Positions 11,495 to 29,893 of a stretch of 64,000 nt of DNA are shown piece by piece; position 1 is the stretch's first letter; each line of letters begins with the position of its first letter. The position numbers were made by a program, and so were the translations under genes. The notes below the pieces were generated by a model that was given only the letters and a program-made list of their open reading frames with translations, did not search any database and was not told where the DNA came from. Source of the DNA: Corallococcus sp. AB038B (lineage in GTDB: Bacteria; Myxococcota; Myxococcia; Myxococcales; Myxococcaceae); assembly GCF_003668955.1 (NCBI RefSeq), contig NZ_RAWO01000002.1:407605-471604 (forward strand), written 5' to 3'.

Positions 11495-11983
11495 TCATCG
11501 GTCAACTTGAAGAACCGCCTCGGCATGAGGTCGTCCGTCCGATGCGGGCTTCTCTGGATCGAGCGCCCAGGTTCCTTCTTCCCAGCGCTTCAATGCCTGC
11601 CCGGCTTCAAAGGGCACGAGCCCCTTGCCCTTGGCGGCTTCCTCCAGGACCGCTTTGGCTTCAGCCGTCCGGTAGCGGAGCAGATGGGCGGCGGCCATGA
11701 CACGCACATCCATGCGCTCATGCTTGAGCAGGACGAGGAGGGCGTCACGCCCTTGTCGGGACCACACTTCCATCGCAATCTGAAGCGCTTCGTGTCCAGC
11801 GTGAAGACGCTGAAGGAGGCGTGGATCAAATACAAAGGCAGTGAGATGAGGATGAAGCGATTCATCTCGCAGATGCCTGCCACGCGCGGATCGTGGGGAT
11901 GAGTGGCGGTAGGGCACGGGAATCGAACTCGCCAGGGACTGCTCTCGCAGCCCCTCACCGGTTTTGAAGACCGGGCCGGCCAC
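11495..11983 (-). CDS. DUF2019-like protein (possible polymorphic-toxin immunity family), start uncertain
   Basis: The segment LLKHERMDVRVMAAAHLLRYRTAEAKAVLEEAAKGKGLVPFEAGQALKRWEEGTW matches the DUF2019 signature (H.N..VRL.AA..L....EAr.vLe.ia.s...P.AGdAgm.L..ld.G). The N-terminal 60 aa of the ORF look non-native. Confidence 0.4.
   Translation of the reverse strand: MAGPVFKTGEGLREQSLASSIPVPYRHSSPRSARGRHLRDESLHPHLTAFVFDPRLLQRLHAGHEALQIAMEVWSRQGRDALLVLLKHERMDVRVMAAAHLLRYRTAEAKAVLEEAAKGKGLVPFEAGQALKRWEEGTWALDPEKPASDGRPHAEAVLQVDR
11535..11615. repeat. ~85-bp direct repeat, copy 2
   Basis: See copy 1 at 9716..9800. Confidence 0.8.
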
Positions 11984-12044
11984 CAGGTCCGGAGGCCCTA
12001 CCGCTTCCGATTACCGCCGCTCCGCGCCAGTCCGTCAACCACGG

Positions 12045-22875: not shown

Positions 22876-23688
22876 GTGCCCTTTGAAAGCGGACGGCGGC
22901 TCTGCCTGCTGGTGGAGGCCGGAGAGACGCGCTACGCGGTAGAGGCCACCTCCGTCATCGAGGTCGCGATGCCGGGCGCTCGCGGCGCGAGTCTGCGCGG
23001 CGTACTGGAAGTGAAGGATCTCGCCGCGCTGCTCGGCGGCCTGCCTGAGGAAGTGCCGGGCATGGTGGTGGTCCTGGACGTCAGCCCCACGCTCGCGGTG
23101 CGGGTGCGCGCCGTGGTGGAGGTCGCGGACGTCGCGAGGGATCCGTTCTTCCTGCTGCCTCCGGGCCTGGCGGACTCGCTGGCGCCGCTGAGCCGGGGCG
23201 CGGTGCTGCACAAGGATCGGCTGTACCTGGAGCTCATCGTGGAGGCGCTGCCGCACCGGGCGGGCCCCCGGGCGACCCCGCCGGAGCCCCGGCCCGTGCA
23301 CTATGCGGACGTGCCCCCGGAGCGGGCACTGGTGCTGGAATCCCAGGGGGTGCTGTTCGGCGTTCCGCTGGGTTGCGTCTCCCAGGTGGTGCCCCGGGGC
23401 GAGGCGTTCAGCGTGCTCCCGGTGCAGAGCGGGCCGGTGGCGGGCGTCTATCCCCACGCGCAGGCGCTGTGGCCCATCTGTTCGATTCCAGCGCTGTTGG
23501 GTGCGCCGGCCCAGGCGGAGGAGCTGTTCGTCCTCACGGAACTGGCGGGGCGGAACGTGGGGCTGGCGGCCACCCGGGTGCTTGGTGTGCTGCAGAAGTT
23601 CAAGCCGGCCGAGCTTCCCGGAACGTTCCGGGCGCCGGGGCTGCCGGATCCGGTGATGTTACTGGACCTGCAGCGCATGTTTTCTTGA
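22876..23688 (+). CDS. Tandem CheW-like domain protein
   Basis: Two CheW-like halves: LCLLVEAGETRYAVEATSVIEV and LVLESQGVLFGVPLGCVSQVV, resembling CheW LTF.LG.E.YGI.V..V.EI. Sits between the GGDEF regulator and romR. Confidence 0.45.
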   Translation: MPFESGRRLCLLVEAGETRYAVEATSVIEVAMPGARGASLRGVLEVKDLAALLGGLPEEVPGMVVVLDVSPTLAVRVRAVVEVADVARDPFFLLPPGLADSLAPLSRGAVLHKDRLYLELIVEALPHRAGPRATPPEPRPVHYADVPPERALVLESQGVLFGVPLGCVSQVVPRGEAFSVLPVQSGPVAGVYPHAQALWPICSIPALLGAPAQAEELFVLTELAGRNVGLAATRVLGVLQKFKPAELPGTFRAPGLPDPVMLLDLQRMFS

Positions 23689-23805
23689 TCGGCCCAACGC
23701 GCGAATCCTAAGCTTCTCCGATTGACACAGGGCGTGCAGGCAGGCTTGCTCGCCCGAAATCTCAAACGAATTCAGGGGGGTATGCGCCCCCCGAGGCCGG
23801 AGCCG

Positions 23806-25068
23806 ATGCCCAAGAATCTACTGATCGCCGACGACTCGCTCACCATCCGCAAGGTGATCGGGATGATCTTCGCGACGGAAGACTTCCAGGTGACCGCGGT
23901 GGACAACGGGCTGGACGCCATCTCCCGCGCGCGCGAGCTGCGTCCGGACGTGGTGCTCGCCGACGTGATGATGCCGGGCAAGAGCGGCTACGAGGTCTGC
24001 GAGGCGCTCAAGAGCGACCCCTCCACGCAGGCCATCCCGGTGCTGCTCCTGGCCGGCACCTTCGAGGCGTTCGACGAGAACCGCGCGAAGGCCGCCCGGG
24101 CGGATGACCACATCGCCAAGCCCTTCGAGAGCCAGATCCTCCTCGACAAGGTGAAGGCGCTGGTGGGCCAGAAGTCCAACACGATGCCCGCGTCCGCCGC
24201 GACGCGCATCCTGCCCCAGACCTCCGCCCCGAGCGCTCCGGCCAGCGCGCCGCCCGCCGCCGCCGTGCCGCCGGGTGCGCGTCCCGCGGGTGCGCCGCCT
24301 CCGGGCGCCGTGCCGCCGGGTGCGCGTCCTCCGCCGGGTGCCGTGCCTCCGGGCGCGCGTCCTCCGGGCGCCGGTGTGCCTCCTCCTCCGGGTGCGGCGC
24401 GTCCGCTGCCGGGCGCTGTTCCTCCGGGCGCGCGTCCTCCGGGTGCGCCGCCTCCGGGCGCCATGCCGCCGGGTGCACGTCCTCCGCCGGGTGCGCCGCC
24501 TCCGGGCATGGGTGCGCGTCCTCCGGGTGCGCCGCCTCCGGGTGCCATGCCGCCGGGTGCGCGTCCTCCGCCGGGTGCCGTGCCTCCGGGCGCGCGTCCT
24601 CCAGGTGCGCCGCCTCCGGGCATGGCCGCGCGTCCTCCGGGCCCTGGCGCCCCGAACATCCCGGGCGGCTTCCCGCGTCCTCCGGGCGCCGCGCCGCTGC
24701 CGTCCGCGCCCCCGCCCGCCGCGGTGCCTCCAGCGGCCCGTGCCCGGGATCCGTTCGGGCTGGGTGCACCGGCCGCCCCGCCCGCCGCGCAGGCCCGCAC
24801 GGGGAGCATCCGCATCGAGGACTCGCTGCCCGAGCCCAGCGGCGCGGAGGAAATCTCCCTGGATATCGGCGGCCCCTCGCCGGCGACTCCTCCCGCGCGC
24901 GCCCGTCCGGCCGCGGATGGCGGCGAGGCGCTGCTGCGCGAGGCGCTGTCGAAGGCGTCCCGCGAGGTCATCGAGAAGATTGCCTGGGAGGTCGTACCGC
25001 AGCTGGCGGAGGCCATCATCCGGGAAGAGCTGGAGCGGCTCATCAAGGACCGCGAGACCCAGCATTGA
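23806..25068 (+). CDS. romR: Polarity response regulator RomR (REC + Pro-rich linker + acidic C-terminal domain)
   Basis: The internal Met gives 420 aa, the known RomR length. N-terminal receiver (LLIADDSLTIRKVIG...DVVLADVMMPGKSGYEV). A long PPGARPPGA repeat linker. An acidic, conserved C-terminus (EKIAWEVVPQLAEAIIREELERLIKD). Synteny with groEL2/encC as in M. xanthus. Confidence 0.7.
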   Translation: MPKNLLIADDSLTIRKVIGMIFATEDFQVTAVDNGLDAISRARELRPDVVLADVMMPGKSGYEVCEALKSDPSTQAIPVLLLAGTFEAFDENRAKAARADDHIAKPFESQILLDKVKALVGQKSNTMPASAATRILPQTSAPSAPASAPPAAAVPPGARPAGAPPPGAVPPGARPPPGAVPPGARPPGAGVPPPPGAARPLPGAVPPGARPPGAPPPGAMPPGARPPPGAPPPGMGARPPGAPPPGAMPPGARPPPGAVPPGARPPGAPPPGMAARPPGPGAPNIPGGFPRPPGAAPLPSAPPPAAVPPAARARDPFGLGAPAAPPAAQARTGSIRIEDSLPEPSGAEEISLDIGGPSPATPPARARPAADGGEALLREALSKASREVIEKIAWEVVPQLAEAIIREELERLIKDRETQH

Positions 25069-25121
25069 TTCGCAGTCCCCTCTGATTCCCCGCCGGCCCC
25101 GTCGGGGGCCGGCCGCTTGCA

Positions 25122-28100
25122 ATGACTGACACGACTGAACTGTCCAAGGCCTACGAGCCCTCCGAAGTGGAGGCGCGGTGGTACAACCACTGGCTGGAGC
25201 GCGACTACTTCCGCGCCGAAGCCCCTTCCTCCAAGCCGCCGTTCAGCATCGTGCTGCCGCCGCCCAACGTGACGGGCAGCCTGCACATCGGCCACGCGCT
25301 CACCGCGACCATCCAGGACATCCTCACGCGCTGGAAGCGGATGAGCGGCTTCAACGCGCTCTGGCTGCCCGGCACGGACCACGCGGGCATCGCCACGCAG
25401 ATGGTGGTGGAGAAGGAGCTCAAGAAGACGGAGGGCAAGAGCCGCCACGACCTGGGCCGCGAGGCGTTCCTCGAGCGCGTCTGGACGTGGAAGGGCAAGT
25501 TCGGCGCGCGCATCGGTGAGCAGCACCGCTACCTGGGCGCGTCCCTGGACTGGAGCCGCGAGCGCTTCACCATGGACGAGCAGTCCTCGGCCGCGGTGCG
25601 CGAGGTGTTCGTCCGGCTGTACGAAGAGGGCCTGATGTACCGGGCCCAGAAGCTGATCAACTGGTGCCCGTCCTGCCGCACGGCCCTCTCCGACCTGGAA
25701 GTGGAGCACGAGGAGAAGAACGGCTCGCTCTGGCACATCCGCTACCCGGTGAAGGGCACGGAGCGCTTCCTCACCGTGGCGACGACGCGCCCGGAGACGC
25801 TGCTGGGCGACACGGCCGTCGCCGTGCATCCGGACGACCCGCGCTATCAGGACCTCATCGGCAAGAGCGTGGCGTTGCCGCTCACCGACCGTGAGATTCC
25901 CGTCATCGCGGACGGCGAGTTGGTGAACATGGAGTTCGGCACCGGCGTGGTGAAGGTCACGCCCGCGCACGACTTCAACGACTACCAGACGGGCCTGCGC
26001 CACAAGCTGCCGATGCTGTCCATCCTGGACGAAGCGGCGCGGATGACGAAGGACACCGGCAAGTACGCGGGCCTGGACCGGGCCGACGCGCGCAAGCAGG
26101 TGCTGGCGGACCTGACGGAGCTGGGCCTGCTGGAGAAGGAGGAGCCGCACAAGCTGAACGTGGGCACCTGCCAGCGCTGCACCACGGTGGTGGAGCCGCG
26201 CCTGTCGCCGCAGTGGTTCATCAAGATCGAACCGCTGGCGAAGCCGGCCATCGAGGCGGTGGAGCAGGGCCGCACGAAGTTCGTCCCCGAGTCCTGGACG
26301 AACACGTACTTCCACTGGATGCGCAACATCCACGACTGGTGCGTGAGCCGCCAGCTGTGGTGGGGCCACCAGATCCCCGCGTGGTACTGCACGGCGTGCA
26401 CGCCCCCGGAGGCGCGCTCGCTGGACACCGCGGACGTCATCGTGTCGCGCACGCCGCCGGAGTCGTGTCCCAAGTGTGGCGGCAAGGAGCTGACGCAGGA
26501 CTCCGACGTGCTGGACACGTGGTTCTCGTCCGCGCTGTGGCCGTTCTCCACGCTGGGCTGGCCGCGTCAGACGCCGGATCTCTCCACGTTCTACCCGACG
26601 TCCGTGATGGAGACGGGCCACGACATCATCTTCTTCTGGGTCGCCCGGATGATGATGATGGGCCTGCACTTCATGGGGGATGTGCCCTTCCGCACCGTGT
26701 ATCTGCACGCGATGGTGCGCGACGAGAAGGGCGAGAAGATGTCCAAGGTGAAGGGGAACGTCATCGATCCCCTGGACGTCATCCTTGGCGCGAAGGTGGA
26801 GTCGCTGCAGCCGTCGCTGCGCAACCGCTTCCCGCAAGGCATGCCCGCGCACGGCGCGGACGCACTGCGCTTCACGCTGGCGTCCGCGACGCAGCAGGGA
26901 CGGGACATCAAGCTGTCGATGGACCGCCTGGGTGGCTACAAGGCGTTCTGCAACAAGCTGTGGAACGCCAGCCGCTTCGCCCTGATGAACATGGGCGACT
27001 TCAGCCTGGACAAGACGCCGCTGGAGGGCCGCAAGCTGACGCTGGCGGACCGGTGGATCCTCTCCCGGTTGCAGAAGGCGACCACGGAGACGCACGCCGC
27101 GCTGGAGGCGTTCGGCTTCGCGGAGGCCGCGTCCACGCTGTACCAGTTCCTGTGGGCGGAGTTCTGCGACTGGTACATCGAGCTGGCGAAGGGCTCGCTG
27201 TACGGCGACGACGCGGAGGCCAAGGACACCACGCGCGCGGTGCTGGTGACGTGTCTGGACCGCATCCTGCGGCTGATGCACCCGTTCATGCCGTTCATCA
27301 CCGAGGAGATCTGGCAGAAGCTGCCGATGTCCCGGCCCACGGAGAGCATCTGCATCGCGGCGTACCCGGTGCCGGAGGCGGCGTGGGTGGACGCGGCCGC
27401 GGAAGGCGAGATGGCGCCGGTCATCGCGGCCATCGAGGGCCTGCGCACGCTGCGCGGCGAGAGCAACCTGCCGCCGTCCGCGAAGGTGAAGGCGGTGGTG
27501 CAGAGCCCGGACGCGACGACGCGCGAGCTGTTGGAGCGTTGGCGCGCGTACCTGATGCCTCTCGCGGGCCTGTCCGAAGTGGTGGTGGGCCCTCCGGGCG
27601 CCAAGCCTCCGCAGGCGGCGGCGTTCGTGAGCGGCAACCTGGAAATCTACGTGCCCCTGGCGGGCCTGGTGGACCTGGACGCGGAGCGCGACCGCCTGAA
27701 GAAGGAGATCGTCCGCTCCGAGCAGGAACTCACCGGTTTGCAGCGCAAGCTGGACAACCCGAACTTCGTGGCCCGTGCTCCGCCGGACGTGGTGGAGAAG
27801 GACAAGGCCCGGGTGGCGGAGCTCCAGGAGCGCACGGTCAAGCTGCAGGATCACCTCCAGCGCATCGCCCCGGAGCCCCCCATGTCCGAGACGCCGTCGC
27901 CGTTGCCGGGCAGCACCGAGTCCGAAGCCCCTGAAGCGTCCGAGTCCCCCGCGCCCGAGAGCGCCCAGGTGAAGGTGGCCACCGAGCCGCAGGAACCGAA
28001 GGACGAAGCGGTGAACCTGGGCCAGGAGCTGAAGGGCGAGATTGAAGCCGAAGAGGCTTCGCAGGCGCCCCAGGCCGCGGATCCGGTGGTGGAGGAGGCC

Positions 28101-28616
28101 CTCAAAAAGCTGCGCGAGGGCACCAAGGAAGGGCTGTCCCCGGCGGACCACCACGACCTGGGCGTCGCGTACATGAGCATGGGCCTCGTGGACGACGCGA
28201 TGCGCGAGTTCGACCGGGCCAAGGAGGGCGGCGACGCCCGCGAGGCGCCGGAGGGTTCGGCGAAGCCGGTGAAGAAGGCTCCGACGAAGAAGGCCCCTGC
28301 GAAGAAGGCTTCCGCGAAGAAGGCGGCAGGCAAGAAGACGGCCGCGAAGAAGGCGGCGGTGAAGAAGGCCCCTGCGAAGAAGGCCTCCGCGAAGAAGGCT
28401 GCGGGGAAGAAGTCCGCCGCGAAGAAAGCCCCTGCGAAGAAGGCTTCCGCGAAGAAGGCGGCGGGCAAGAAGACGGCCGCGAAGAAGGCGGCGGTGAAGA
28501 AGGCTCCTGCGAAGAAGGCTTCGGCGAAGAAGGCGGCGGGCAAGAAGACCGCCGCGAAGAAGGCCGCGGCGAAGAAGACCACTCGGGGCAAGCCGGCTCG
28601 CAAGGCGCGCCGGTAG
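25122..28616 (+). CDS. valS: Valine--tRNA ligase with ~260-aa C-terminal extension (acidic linker + lysine/alanine-rich H1-like repeats)
   Basis: Class I HIGH ([14 protein letters not shown]) and KMSKS (KMSKVKGNV) motifs. Editing domain. C-terminal coiled coil ending ...LQRIAP at about aa 905. The ORF then continues in frame through an E/P-rich spacer and 5-6 copies of [25 protein letters not shown]. Confidence 0.95.
28240..28610 (+). repeat. Coding tandem repeat (about 48-51 nt units) encoding the AKKA/KKAP lysine-rich tail of ValRS
   Basis: Near-identical units of gaagaaggc(t/c)cctgcgaagaaggc(t/c)tc(c/g)gcgaagaaggcggc(g/a)ggcaagaagacggccgcgaagaaggcggcggtgaag repeated five times. Confidence 0.8.
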
Positions 28617-28625
28617 GAGGCGGAA

Positions 28626-29504
28626 GTGCAGCAGGATTATCTCGATCGGCTCATCGCGCTGTCCCTCGACGAGGACCTGGGTGCTGCGGGGGACGTCACC
28701 TCGCTGGCGGTGGTCCCCGCCGAAGCGGAGGGCAGCGGTGAGCTGGTCGCGAAGGAGCAGATGATCGTCGCCGGCCTGGACGCCTTCGTCCGCGTCTTCC
28801 ACATGGTGGACGCGGAGGTGGAGGTGGAGGTCCTCAAGCGCGACGGCGAGGAAATCAAACCGAAGGTGGTCGCCGCGCGCGTCCACGGCAAGCTGCGTTC
28901 GCTGCTGGCCGCTGAGCGCACGGCGCTCAACCTGGTGCAGCGCGCCGCCGGCATCGCGACGCTGGCCCAGCAGGCGATGACCTCCGTGCGAGGCTCGAAG
29001 CTGCGGGTGCTGGACACGCGCAAGACGCCGCCGGGCATGCGAGGCCTCGCGAAGCACGCGGTGCGCATGGGCGGCGCGTCCAACCACCGCTTCGGCCTCT
29101 TCGACGGCATCCTCATCAAGGACAACCACATCGCGGCGGTAGGTGGCGACATCACCGAAGCGGTGCGCCGCGCGAAGCTGAACGGTCCCCGGCTGGTGAA
29201 GATTGAAGTGGAGGTCACCAACTTCAAGCAGCTGGAGGAGGCCATCGCCGCGGGCGCGGACGTCATCATGTTGGACAACATGGACGACGCGCAGATCCGC
29301 GAAGCGGTGAAGCTGACGGCGAGCCGCGTGCCCATCGAAGTGTCGGGCGGCGTCACGTTGGACCGGCTGCCCCGGCTGGCGAAGCTGGGCGTGGACTTCG
29401 TGTCGATGGGCGCGCTGACGCACTCGGCGCGGGCCATGGACCTGTCGCTGGAGATCGCGACGACGAAGAAGTCCACGCGCAAGCCCCGCTCCGCGCAGGG
29501 CTGA
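28626..29504 (+). CDS. nadC: Nicotinate-nucleotide pyrophosphorylase (quinolinate phosphoribosyltransferase)
   Basis: Full-length QAPRTase: LDTRKTPPGMRGLAKHAVRMGGASNHRFGLFDGILIKDNH, C-terminal TIM-barrel GGVTLD. Confidence 0.9.
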   Translation: MQQDYLDRLIALSLDEDLGAAGDVTSLAVVPAEAEGSGELVAKEQMIVAGLDAFVRVFHMVDAEVEVEVLKRDGEEIKPKVVAARVHGKLRSLLAAERTALNLVQRAAGIATLAQQAMTSVRGSKLRVLDTRKTPPGMRGLAKHAVRMGGASNHRFGLFDGILIKDNHIAAVGGDITEAVRRAKLNGPRLVKIEVEVTNFKQLEEAIAAGADVIMLDNMDDAQIREAVKLTASRVPIEVSGGVTLDRLPRLAKLGVDFVSMGALTHSARAMDLSLEIATTKKSTRKPRSAQG

Positions 29505-29535
29505 AGCGGTCAGCGGTCTTCACGAATCCGCAGAG

Positions 29536-29574
29536 AGCGCCTCCGAGTCCTGGGACTCGGAGGCGCTTGTGTTT
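29536..29574. terminator. Bidirectional intrinsic terminator (15-bp perfect stem) downstream of nadC
   Basis: agcgcctccgagtcc-tg-ggactcggaggcgct followed by tgtgttt. Lies between converging stops (nadC + strand; small peptide gene - strand). Confidence 0.55.
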
Positions 29575-29800
29575 ACGGCTGGGTGCAGCGCCAGACCCCG
29601 CAGGAACCGCCGCTCGTGCCGCACTCCATCTGGGTCGAGCACGGCTTGCAGGTGCGTGAACAGATCATCTGGACAGCAGACGCCTGGTTATCGGTCGTCT
29701 CCGCCGTCGAGCCGGGAACCATGGCCAGGGCCGTACCCGCCATGATGCCGATGATCAGCGCGAATCCAGGAATCGTCTGCTTCAGTCGCGATGCCTTCAT
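29573..29800 (-). CDS. Small secreted Cys-rich peptide precursor (75 aa; signal peptide + 6-Cys, 42-aa mature region)
   Basis: Signal peptide MKASRLKQTIPGFALIIGIMAGTALAMVPGSTA. Mature region with C-x3-C-x2-C-x5-C-x6-C-x4-C. ORF ends exactly at the terminator. Confidence 0.45.
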   Translation of the reverse strand: MKASRLKQTIPGFALIIGIMAGTALAMVPGSTAETTDNQASAVQMICSRTCKPCSTQMECGTSGGSCGVWRCTQP

Positions 29801-29893
29801 GCTTCCTCCGGGGTGGGTGCCACCGGGTCAGAGCATCCTGGCCCGCTGACAGGAAGGCATTCGAACAGACGCCGCGACGCAATCCAAGGTCAC

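Follow-up and report, generated by a model that had tools for sequence, protein, structure and literature searches.

Lysine-rich appended domains that boost tRNA binding are a textbook feature of eukaryotic aminoacyl-tRNA synthetases, and to our knowledge they are usually described as absent from bacteria. Here, we analyzed valS, the gene for valyl-tRNA synthetase (ValRS), in a 64-kb stretch of DNA from Corallococcus sp. AB038B (64,000 nucleotides of contig NZ_RAWO01000002.1, hereafter the window), whose product runs past the end of an ordinary ValRS into a C-terminal appendage with a polycationic tail. The appendage is real, selectively maintained, and specific to the Myxococcaceae and Archangiaceae, bacteria known for multicellular behavior, large genomes, and abundant low-complexity proteins. 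These families keep a much more extreme version of the lysine-rich appended domain, plus an invariant mini-domain.

Among synthetases, the closest described systems are the N-terminal domains of yeast GlnRS and ValRS, mammalian LysRS, and the C terminus of rice MetRS, each with a lysine-rich terminal extension that canonical bacterial enzymes lack. The valS product compares well in this respect, with a tail that is 39% lysine on an enzyme whose nearest relatives nearly all end without an extension (138 of 142, see below). The lysine-rich extensions of eukaryotic synthetases are terminal and largely disordered and act in cis as non-specific binders of RNA and tRNA (PMC2992532; PMC6213541). Unlike the eukaryotic domains, with which it has no sequence homology, the valS tail is bacterial and C-terminal, whereas the yeast ValRS domain is N-terminal; it is also far more repetitive (KKxxx repeated 21 times) and follows an acidic linker and a module resembling a tetratricopeptide repeat (TPR).

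The tail also invites comparison with the histone-H1-like tails of Chlamydia Hc2, Pseudomonas AlgP and PhaF, Anaeromyxobacter CarD, and mycobacterial Ku, HU, and TopA. It resembles these in composition, disorder, short tandem repeats, and variation in repeat number; in AlgP, for example, repeat number differs between isolates (PMC9239181). It departs from them in its unit, a KKAxA-type pentapeptide with 5% proline instead of KPAA or PAKKA, in failing the NCBIfam H1-like models, and in its host, which is a tRNA synthetase and not a nucleoid or granule protein. Within the same taxonomic group, in Myxococcus xanthus CarD a basic repeat region comes after an acidic segment that is intrinsically unfolded (PMC4374960), so that its HMGA-like C-terminal domain shares the acidic-then-basic order of blocks with the ValRS appendage. 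Unlike CarD, the valS product has no RGRP AT-hooks in its tail, only one RGKP (amino acids [aa] 1154-1157), and it carries a folded TPR-like module between the acidic and basic blocks.

Extent and distribution of the appendage

The body of the valS product is canonical. It scored above the cutoff of PF00133, PF08264, and PF10458 (Table 1), as expected of a class Ia valine--tRNA ligase, with the HIGH and KMSK motifs visible in its translation as LHIGH and KMSKV; against the NCBIfam model TIGR00422 it reached 1132 bits (cutoff, 612), and it passed NF004349 as well. Ordinary ValRSs have their C terminus at the end of the coiled coil, where tail-less relatives finish with ...LQRIA or an equivalent. 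In the valS product, the coiled coil was modeled by AlphaFold2 with a predicted local distance difference test score (pLDDT) of 93-96, and Val_tRNA-synt_C ends at aa 915; the extension therefore comprises aa 916-1164 (nucleotides [nt] 27867-28613). By these Pfam boundaries it is 249 aa long, instead of the about 260 aa given in an earlier reading made from the sequence alone (the original prediction). Its parts follow in the order acidic linker, three-helix module with a TPR-like hairpin, short spacer, and polycationic tail, and composition, AlphaFold2, and TPR profiles agree with the architecture originally proposed, i.e., an acidic spacer, one TPR-like unit, and a lysine/alanine tail. The most strongly conserved part of the extension is the TPR-like module, not the tail.

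A pattern scan in which each species was represented by one genome yielded 88 relatives; the analysis retained 80 of these. The 80 loci are from Corallococcus, Myxococcus, Pyxidicoccus, Citreicoccus, Hyalangium, Archangium, and metagenome-assembled genomes of Myxococcaceae and Archangiaceae, one of the records being labelled Comamonas. Wherever a locus is not truncated at the end of its contig, a single reading frame, uninterrupted by stops, runs from the core through the coiled coil, linker, and module to the basic tail. The extension was thus rightly predicted to continue in frame past the coiled coil, as one open reading frame (ORF) shared by the 80 genome loci and 33 near-identical proteins from RefSeq and metagenomes. 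In the valS frame, third codon positions are 85-92% GC in the extension versus 95% in the core. Antisense ORFs at 27851-28603 and 23988-29423 (both minus strand) were rejected as high-GC artefacts, large antisense ORFs being a usual by-product of a genome with 69% GC, and the third-position signature belongs to the plus frame. A frameshift or missed stop is ruled out by the common frame in relatives, the coding signature at third positions, and the database proteins; the stop codon near aa 905 or frameshift artefact that had been contemplated is not the case.

We then turned to ValRSs at large. An HMMER search covered 1.84 billion cluster representatives; the best 150 ValRS clusters were taken, and the coiled coil could be aligned in 142 of them. 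Among these nearest representatives, 138 end no more than 20 aa after the coiled coil. Together with the 80 one-frame loci, this means that the extension is neither universal in bacterial ValRSs, an outcome that the original prediction had also envisaged, nor an artefact; it is indeed unusual on a bacterial ValRS, and the comparison with other ValRSs indicates an appendage that is lineage-specific to the Myxococcaceae and Archangiaceae as far as sampled.

The remaining four of the 142 are of different kinds. P0173 has the same module and tail as the valS of the window. The P0121 cluster, from metagenome-assembled genomes of uncultured Myxococcales (1040-1102 aa), has a proline/glutamine-rich repeat linker (QPPQPKSQPP...), an unrelated helical segment, and a tail rich in arginine, lysine, and glycine. 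Because this basic tail stands on otherwise unrelated sequence, the basic tail is a recurring feature, and a basic ValRS tail either arose twice or diverged beyond recognition within the Myxococcota. P0189, from an ENA metagenome contig (1581 aa), carries a C-terminal extension of about 600 aa in which canonical TPR repeats are numerous and whose sequence is unrelated to that of the module, and P0231 looks eukaryote-like. As to the exception among the genome loci, the Comamonas record (L030; BNCN01000007.1, "Comamonas sp. KCTC 72670") holds a long valS of the Myxococcus type, including the module and a tail of 255 aa, and is probably mislabelled or contaminated.

The long form itself is already in databases. 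RefSeq WP_121759521.1 (valine--tRNA ligase, Corallococcus sp. AB038B) is identical to the valS product by exact-sequence look-up, and NCBIfam holds a dedicated equivalog model, NF011492/PRK14900.1, whose 1044 positions extend across linker and module into the beginning of the tail. The valS product is a member of this long-form myxobacterial ValRS family (1834 bits versus a curated cutoff of 1783, with aa 1-1110 aligned to model positions 3-1022) and shows no structural difference from it. The entry names the enzyme only and leaves the appendage without annotation, and a full-text literature search found no publication on the appendage of the long-form ValRS. In annotation, the appendage should accordingly be kept as a real part of the protein, neither trimmed nor split.

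Table 1. Features of valS and its neighborhood (window positions; aa numbering refers to the valS product)
Feature	Position (nt)	Strand	Basis or remark
CheW-like gene	22876-23688		before the response-regulator gene
Response-regulator receiver protein, 448 aa	23722-25068	+	directly upstream of valS
valS coding sequence	25122-28616	+	1164 aa plus TAG stop; single ORF (ORF list)
Catalytic and editing domains, aa 20-599; anticodon-binding domain, aa 643-792	25179-27497	+	Pfam (tRNA-synt_1 PF00133 at aa 20-599, E 1.6e-149; Anticodon_1 PF08264 at aa 643-792, E 9.2e-42), motifs
C-terminal coiled coil (tRNA-binding arm), aa 851-915	27672-27866	+	Val_tRNA-synt_C PF10458, E 1.2e-18
Acidic P/E/S-rich linker, aa 916-983	27867-28070	+	composition, AlphaFold2
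CCGGAG-N6-ATG (Pro917-Glu918-x-x-Met921)	27870-27884	+	codon comparison; Shine-Dalgarno-like GGAG 6 nt before in-frame ATG
Three-helix module, aa 984-1035: one helix, then a single TPR-like hairpin	28071-28226	+	alignments, AlphaFold2, TPR profiles
Spacer between module and repeat array, about aa 1036-1050 (15 aa)	28227-28271	+	translation; varies among strains
Histone-H1-like tail, aa 1051-1164: 21 KKxxx pentapeptides plus terminal 12 residues	28272-28613	+	Tandem Repeats Finder, composition, Pfam
nadC (quinolinate phosphoribosyltransferase)	28626-29504	+	TIGR00078, E 1.5e-90; GTG start 10 nt past the valS stop

Module, linker, and tail

Conservation is distributed unevenly along the protein. 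Over 70 complete genes, mean column identity is 0.84 in the module, 0.83 in the catalytic core, and 0.75 in the coiled coil, compared with 0.43 in the linker and 0.49 in the tail. Module positions are invariant in both alignments (A1 and A2), with DLGVAY and MGL among the invariant residues, and these residues are encoded by three to four different codons each, so that selection acts on the protein. AlphaFold2 places the module helices at aa 988-1000, 1007-1019, and 1023-1035 with a pLDDT of 86-91.

The module resembles TPR proteins in that aa 1005-1032 fit the consensus L-G-x-A-Y ... G ... A ... F ... A and that a helix-turn-helix is predicted with a pLDDT of about 90. It differs from them as a single repeat with one preceding helix, scoring under the gathering threshold of every Pfam TPR family and forming no array, for which at least three repeats would be needed. 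The best Pfam TPR score was that of TPR_2, at 18.4 bits versus a gathering score of 27 (E 0.0023-0.037, under the family cutoff), and 13 of 14 orthologous modules match the same family, all below threshold. A profile built from the 14 modules matches consensus-TPR structures (E 1.6e-9, summed over 8 repeats) and also MamA. When the AlphaFold2 model was compared with the PDB by Foldseek, no match was obtained at E ≤ 0.001; the top, non-significant hit was the T. thermophilus ValRS coiled coil (1gax_A), with consensus TPR at rank 35. A homologue search with aa 960-1045 yielded four word candidates and no match, in a weak search whose word index was sparse for this query. SgmX (NF052243) was rejected as a relative, as its 26 bits versus a cutoff of 1800 were taken to reflect TPR plus acidic low complexity.

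The linker (15 glutamates, 12 prolines, 10 alanines, and 8 serines; net charge, -13) is predicted to be disordered, with a pLDDT below 50 except in an acidic amphipathic helix at aa 964-979; it also includes a short conserved motif, AQVKVA, at aa 948-953. Across relatives it spans 34-113 aa with a net charge of -3 to -31. Linker charge and tail charge are correlated (Spearman rho -0.80, n = 54, uncorrected for phylogeny).

The tail contains 44 lysines and 42 alanines in 114 aa, with a net charge of +48 and an isoelectric point of 11.5, and is likewise predicted to be disordered (pLDDT below 50). Its pentapeptides are grouped as four super-units of 25, 20, 25, and 25 aa, in place of the five to six tandem units first reported. 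At the DNA level, Tandem Repeats Finder detected a 15-nt period (20.9 copies, 73% matches) and a 75-nt period (4.1 copies, 84%), and identity by offset was 76% at 75 nt and 81% at 135 nt, with 91% in the best 135-nt pair. The copies differ mainly at synonymous sites, the amino acid repeats being better kept than their DNA; hence the repeats, with periods of 15, 75, and 135 nt and identities of 73-84% (91% at best), are neither near-identical nor about 50 nt long, as had been stated. Elsewhere in the window, no other lysine/alanine-rich stretch was found.

The H1-like character of the tail, also proposed at the outset, holds in Pfam and not in NCBIfam. HC2 (PF07382) matches aa 1049-1161 with 44.8 bits in the whole protein and 50.8 bits in the tail alone versus a gathering score of 40, a compositional match that speaks for likeness, not common descent. 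The NCBIfam H1-like models stayed below their cutoffs, with 51.6-54.5 bits versus 80 for NF038053 (hist_H1_lk_Burk) and 27.7-32.4 versus 135 for NF038052 (Hc2), and the KPAA tetrapeptide of AlgP and PhaF is not the unit of this tail, which is built on KKxxx with 6 prolines in 114 aa.

Across relatives, the tail is always present and always ends in K/R-R, with a length of 49-287 aa, a net charge of +17 to +61, and a pooled composition of 34% alanine, 32% lysine, and 11% proline. Repeat-number instability, as anticipated, is evident, albeit modest: in the 90%-identity cluster to which the valS product belongs (33 members, cores at least 95% identical), the shortest tail has 114 aa and the longest 131, the lengths differing mostly by 5-aa steps that fall in the N-terminal half of the array. 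We also observed that the RGKP near the end of the Corallococcus tail is AT-hook-like (28581-28592), and that Myxococcus relatives end in RAKP(S/K)ARAKARR.

Possible roles and origin of the appendage

By analogy, the appendage may correspond, in bacteria, to the lysine-rich additions through which eukaryotic synthetases bind tRNA; binding and an effect on aminoacylation are inferred tentatively, as quite possible but short of probable. In this scheme, the best supported of those considered, the tail would bind polyanions electrostatically and without sequence specificity, and the flexible linker would tether it beside the tRNA-binding coiled coil, raising local capture and retention of tRNA; other RNA, e.g., that of ribosomes, could be held as well. 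In the T. thermophilus ValRS-tRNA structure 1GAX, attributed to Fukai et al. in 2000, the coiled coil reportedly contacts the tRNA elbow, so the appendage would begin beside the bound tRNA. The invariant module, which would need a specific partner, would most likely be a docking surface, either between proteins or intramolecularly for the ValRS body. The acidic linker would probably shield or tune the tail, shielding being plausible in that linker charge and tail charge track each other. The single frame with its coding signature, a module conserved like the core, and a tail that is invariably present all favor this reading, as do the Pfam HC2 match, the predicted disorder of linker and tail around a confidently modeled module, the recurrence of a basic tail in the P0121 cluster, and the electrostatic binding of DNA and RNA by lysine-rich low-complexity regions (PMC6821194). 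If the tail does bind tRNA, bacteria would have converged on a eukaryotic solution.

Several observations weigh against such an RNA arm. A pure tRNA-affinity tail leaves the invariant folded module and an acidic linker of up to 113 aa unexplained, and a precise geometric role is hard to reconcile with the six-fold variation in tail length. A KKxxx period would not give the amphipathic KxxxKKxxK helix described for eukaryotic class IIb synthetases, and the correlation between linker and tail charge is, as noted, uncorrected for phylogeny. Moreover, HC2-type tails occur on DksA, adenylate kinase, and other proteins, so the tail is not tRNA-specific and may serve localization in general.

This last point leads to a reading that we consider unlikely, though well worth weighing, namely that the tail anchors ValRS to the nucleoid (DNA), to polyphosphate granules, or to condensates without acting on tRNA directly, as part of a general myxobacterial habit of tailing housekeeping proteins. 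Among the tail matches listed, the same type of lysine/alanine tail occurs on DksA, adenylate kinase, RsfS, Obg, CarD-family proteins, HU, a topoisomerase I fragment, EF-hand proteins, and response regulators. With so many housekeeping hosts, the tail is a promiscuous module, and its spread looks like a proteome-wide habit, in agreement with a survey that found myxobacteria to be the bacteria richest in low-complexity regions, of which the lysine-rich ones bind DNA and RNA electrostatically (PMC6821194). NCBIfam also has an adenylate kinase model with an HC2-type tail (NF010381).

Precedents for anchoring exist. The H1-like C-terminal domain of Anaeromyxobacter CarD functionally replaces the HMGA DNA-binding domain of its M. 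xanthus counterpart (PMC2919716), and in M. xanthus CarD, too, basic repeats come after an acidic segment (PMC4374960). The lysine/proline/alanine tail of AlgP goes to polyphosphate granules (PMC9239181), that of PhaF links polyhydroxyalkanoate granules to the nucleoid, and in M. xanthus the nucleoid has polyphosphate granules embedded in it (PMC11894788). On the other hand, a tRNA synthetase gains no obvious benefit from sitting on DNA or polyphosphate, no other synthetase with an HC2-type tail was found among the 120 tail matches listed, and the ValRS-specific invariant module and its site beside the tRNA arm would be left unexplained. Should the tail nonetheless bind DNA or polyphosphate, it would bear on the spatial organization of translation factors in myxobacteria. 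In either event, valS offers a clean case, genetically tractable in M. xanthus, for studying H1-like tails on enzymes.

The conservation of the module, highest within the extension and equal to that of the catalytic core, would be accounted for if this unit of one and a half TPRs recruited a partner such as an elongation factor, a synthetase, or a regulator, with the charged segments as accessories, in a bacterial analogue of the synthetase complexes built via appended domains; we regard this scaffold as improbable. In its favor, TPR units serve as motifs for protein interaction, and TPR profiles match the module; another ValRS, P0189, has a long multi-TPR C terminus, and some appended domains of eukaryotic synthetases mediate protein-protein interactions (PMC2992532). 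However, functional TPR arrays usually comprise at least three units, more than the single one here, the long ValRS of the P0121 type lacks a TPR module although its tail is basic, and the weak, motif-only homologue search gave no other protein with the module. The RNA arm, the anchor, and the scaffold are not mutually exclusive; roughly graded, the first is quite possible, the second unlikely, and the third more unlikely again.

A further proposal concerns origin. Exactly where ordinary ValRSs terminate, the long-linker genes carry CCGGAG-N6-ATG (Table 1), in which a Shine-Dalgarno-like motif precedes an in-frame ATG. In 38 of 38 long-linker loci, the CCG, GAG, and ATG codons are invariant, while the two codons in between and the residues after the methionine vary. 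As these loci, which are related by descent, were chosen by the peptide P-E-x-x-M, the codon choice alone is informative: invariant proline columns are at least 97% CCG in 4 of 39 cases, invariant glutamate columns are all GAG in 13 of 31, and a Shine-Dalgarno-like motif precedes just 2 of the 29 internal in-frame ATGs of valS. The joint chance of this pattern is about 5%, reckoned post hoc. The sequence hints at, and would fit, a fossil operon junction, perhaps with an internal start that is still active.

A related arrangement was seen in P0021 (JGI metagenome 3300047160, a 24.7-kb contig), where valS is called as 925 aa and is followed by a separate 172-aa ORF and then nadC. The 172-aa ORF lies 31 nt downstream in another frame and encodes the short motif, the TPR-like module, and the basic tail; the split is either the unfused ancestral state or a sequencing frameshift. 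A metagenome scan with this stand-alone ORF matched only an unrelated TPR protein (L082). Four further short proteins named valyl-tRNA synthetase (P0011, P0015, P0016, and P0018) were considered as stand-alone tails and rejected as truncations, because they start 6-37 nt from a contig edge.

Taken at face value, the invariant junction and the P0021 contig would make the extension a former small gene between valS and nadC, an origin to which we give little chance. We think it similarly doubtful that long-linker lineages still start at Met921 and make a free 244-aa protein (acidic, TPR-like, and H1-like) besides the fusion, and no easier to credit that the fusion arose by loss of a stop codon at an operon junction, with the deep-branching P0021 still unfused. 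Against all this stand the post hoc nature of the statistics on loci of common descent, the lack of a conserved start at the coiled-coil end in short-linker (Archangium-type) genomes, the possible frameshift in P0021, and the contig-edge truncation of the other short proteins. If the internal start were live, its free product would be a previously unrecognized myxobacterial factor binding the nucleoid or RNA.

Finally, neutral low-complexity expansion by slippage or an assembly artefact (a missed stop or frameshift) is highly improbable even though linker and tail lengths drift widely in what are the most low-complexity-enriched bacteria (PMC6821194), since 80 independent assemblies and the 33 near-identical database proteins in the same frame exclude the artefact, and the invariant module, a tail composition and K/R-R end that are constant over family-level divergence, and amino acid repeats better conserved than their DNA contradict neutrality.

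Genomic neighborhood of valS

The gene order around valS is CheW-like, response regulator, valS, and nadC. The valS TAG overlaps the AGGAGG ribosome-binding site of nadC, which suggests co-transcription of the two genes, and the valS-nadC order recurs in metagenome contigs. In the response-regulator protein, proline/glycine/alanine repeats of the PPGARPPGA type take up about 200 aa, and the C terminus is helical; the layout of the CheW-like and response-regulator genes presumably resembles that of the polarity and motility regulators of Myxococcus. An Rfam search of 23000-30000 returned no family, and a promoter and terminator scan gave no sense-strand signal, its only hits being antisense pseudo-terminators produced by the tail repeat itself. 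No tRNA-Val gene is present in the window, whose only tRNA gene is that of a selenocysteine tRNA (anticodon TCA, 11904-12002, minus strand). Upstream of valS, which has no obvious Shine-Dalgarno sequence, a G+C-rich hairpin (CCGCCGGCCCCGTCGGGGGCCGGCCG, 25075-25118) separates the stop codon of the response-regulator gene from the valS ATG and may be a terminator or an attenuator.

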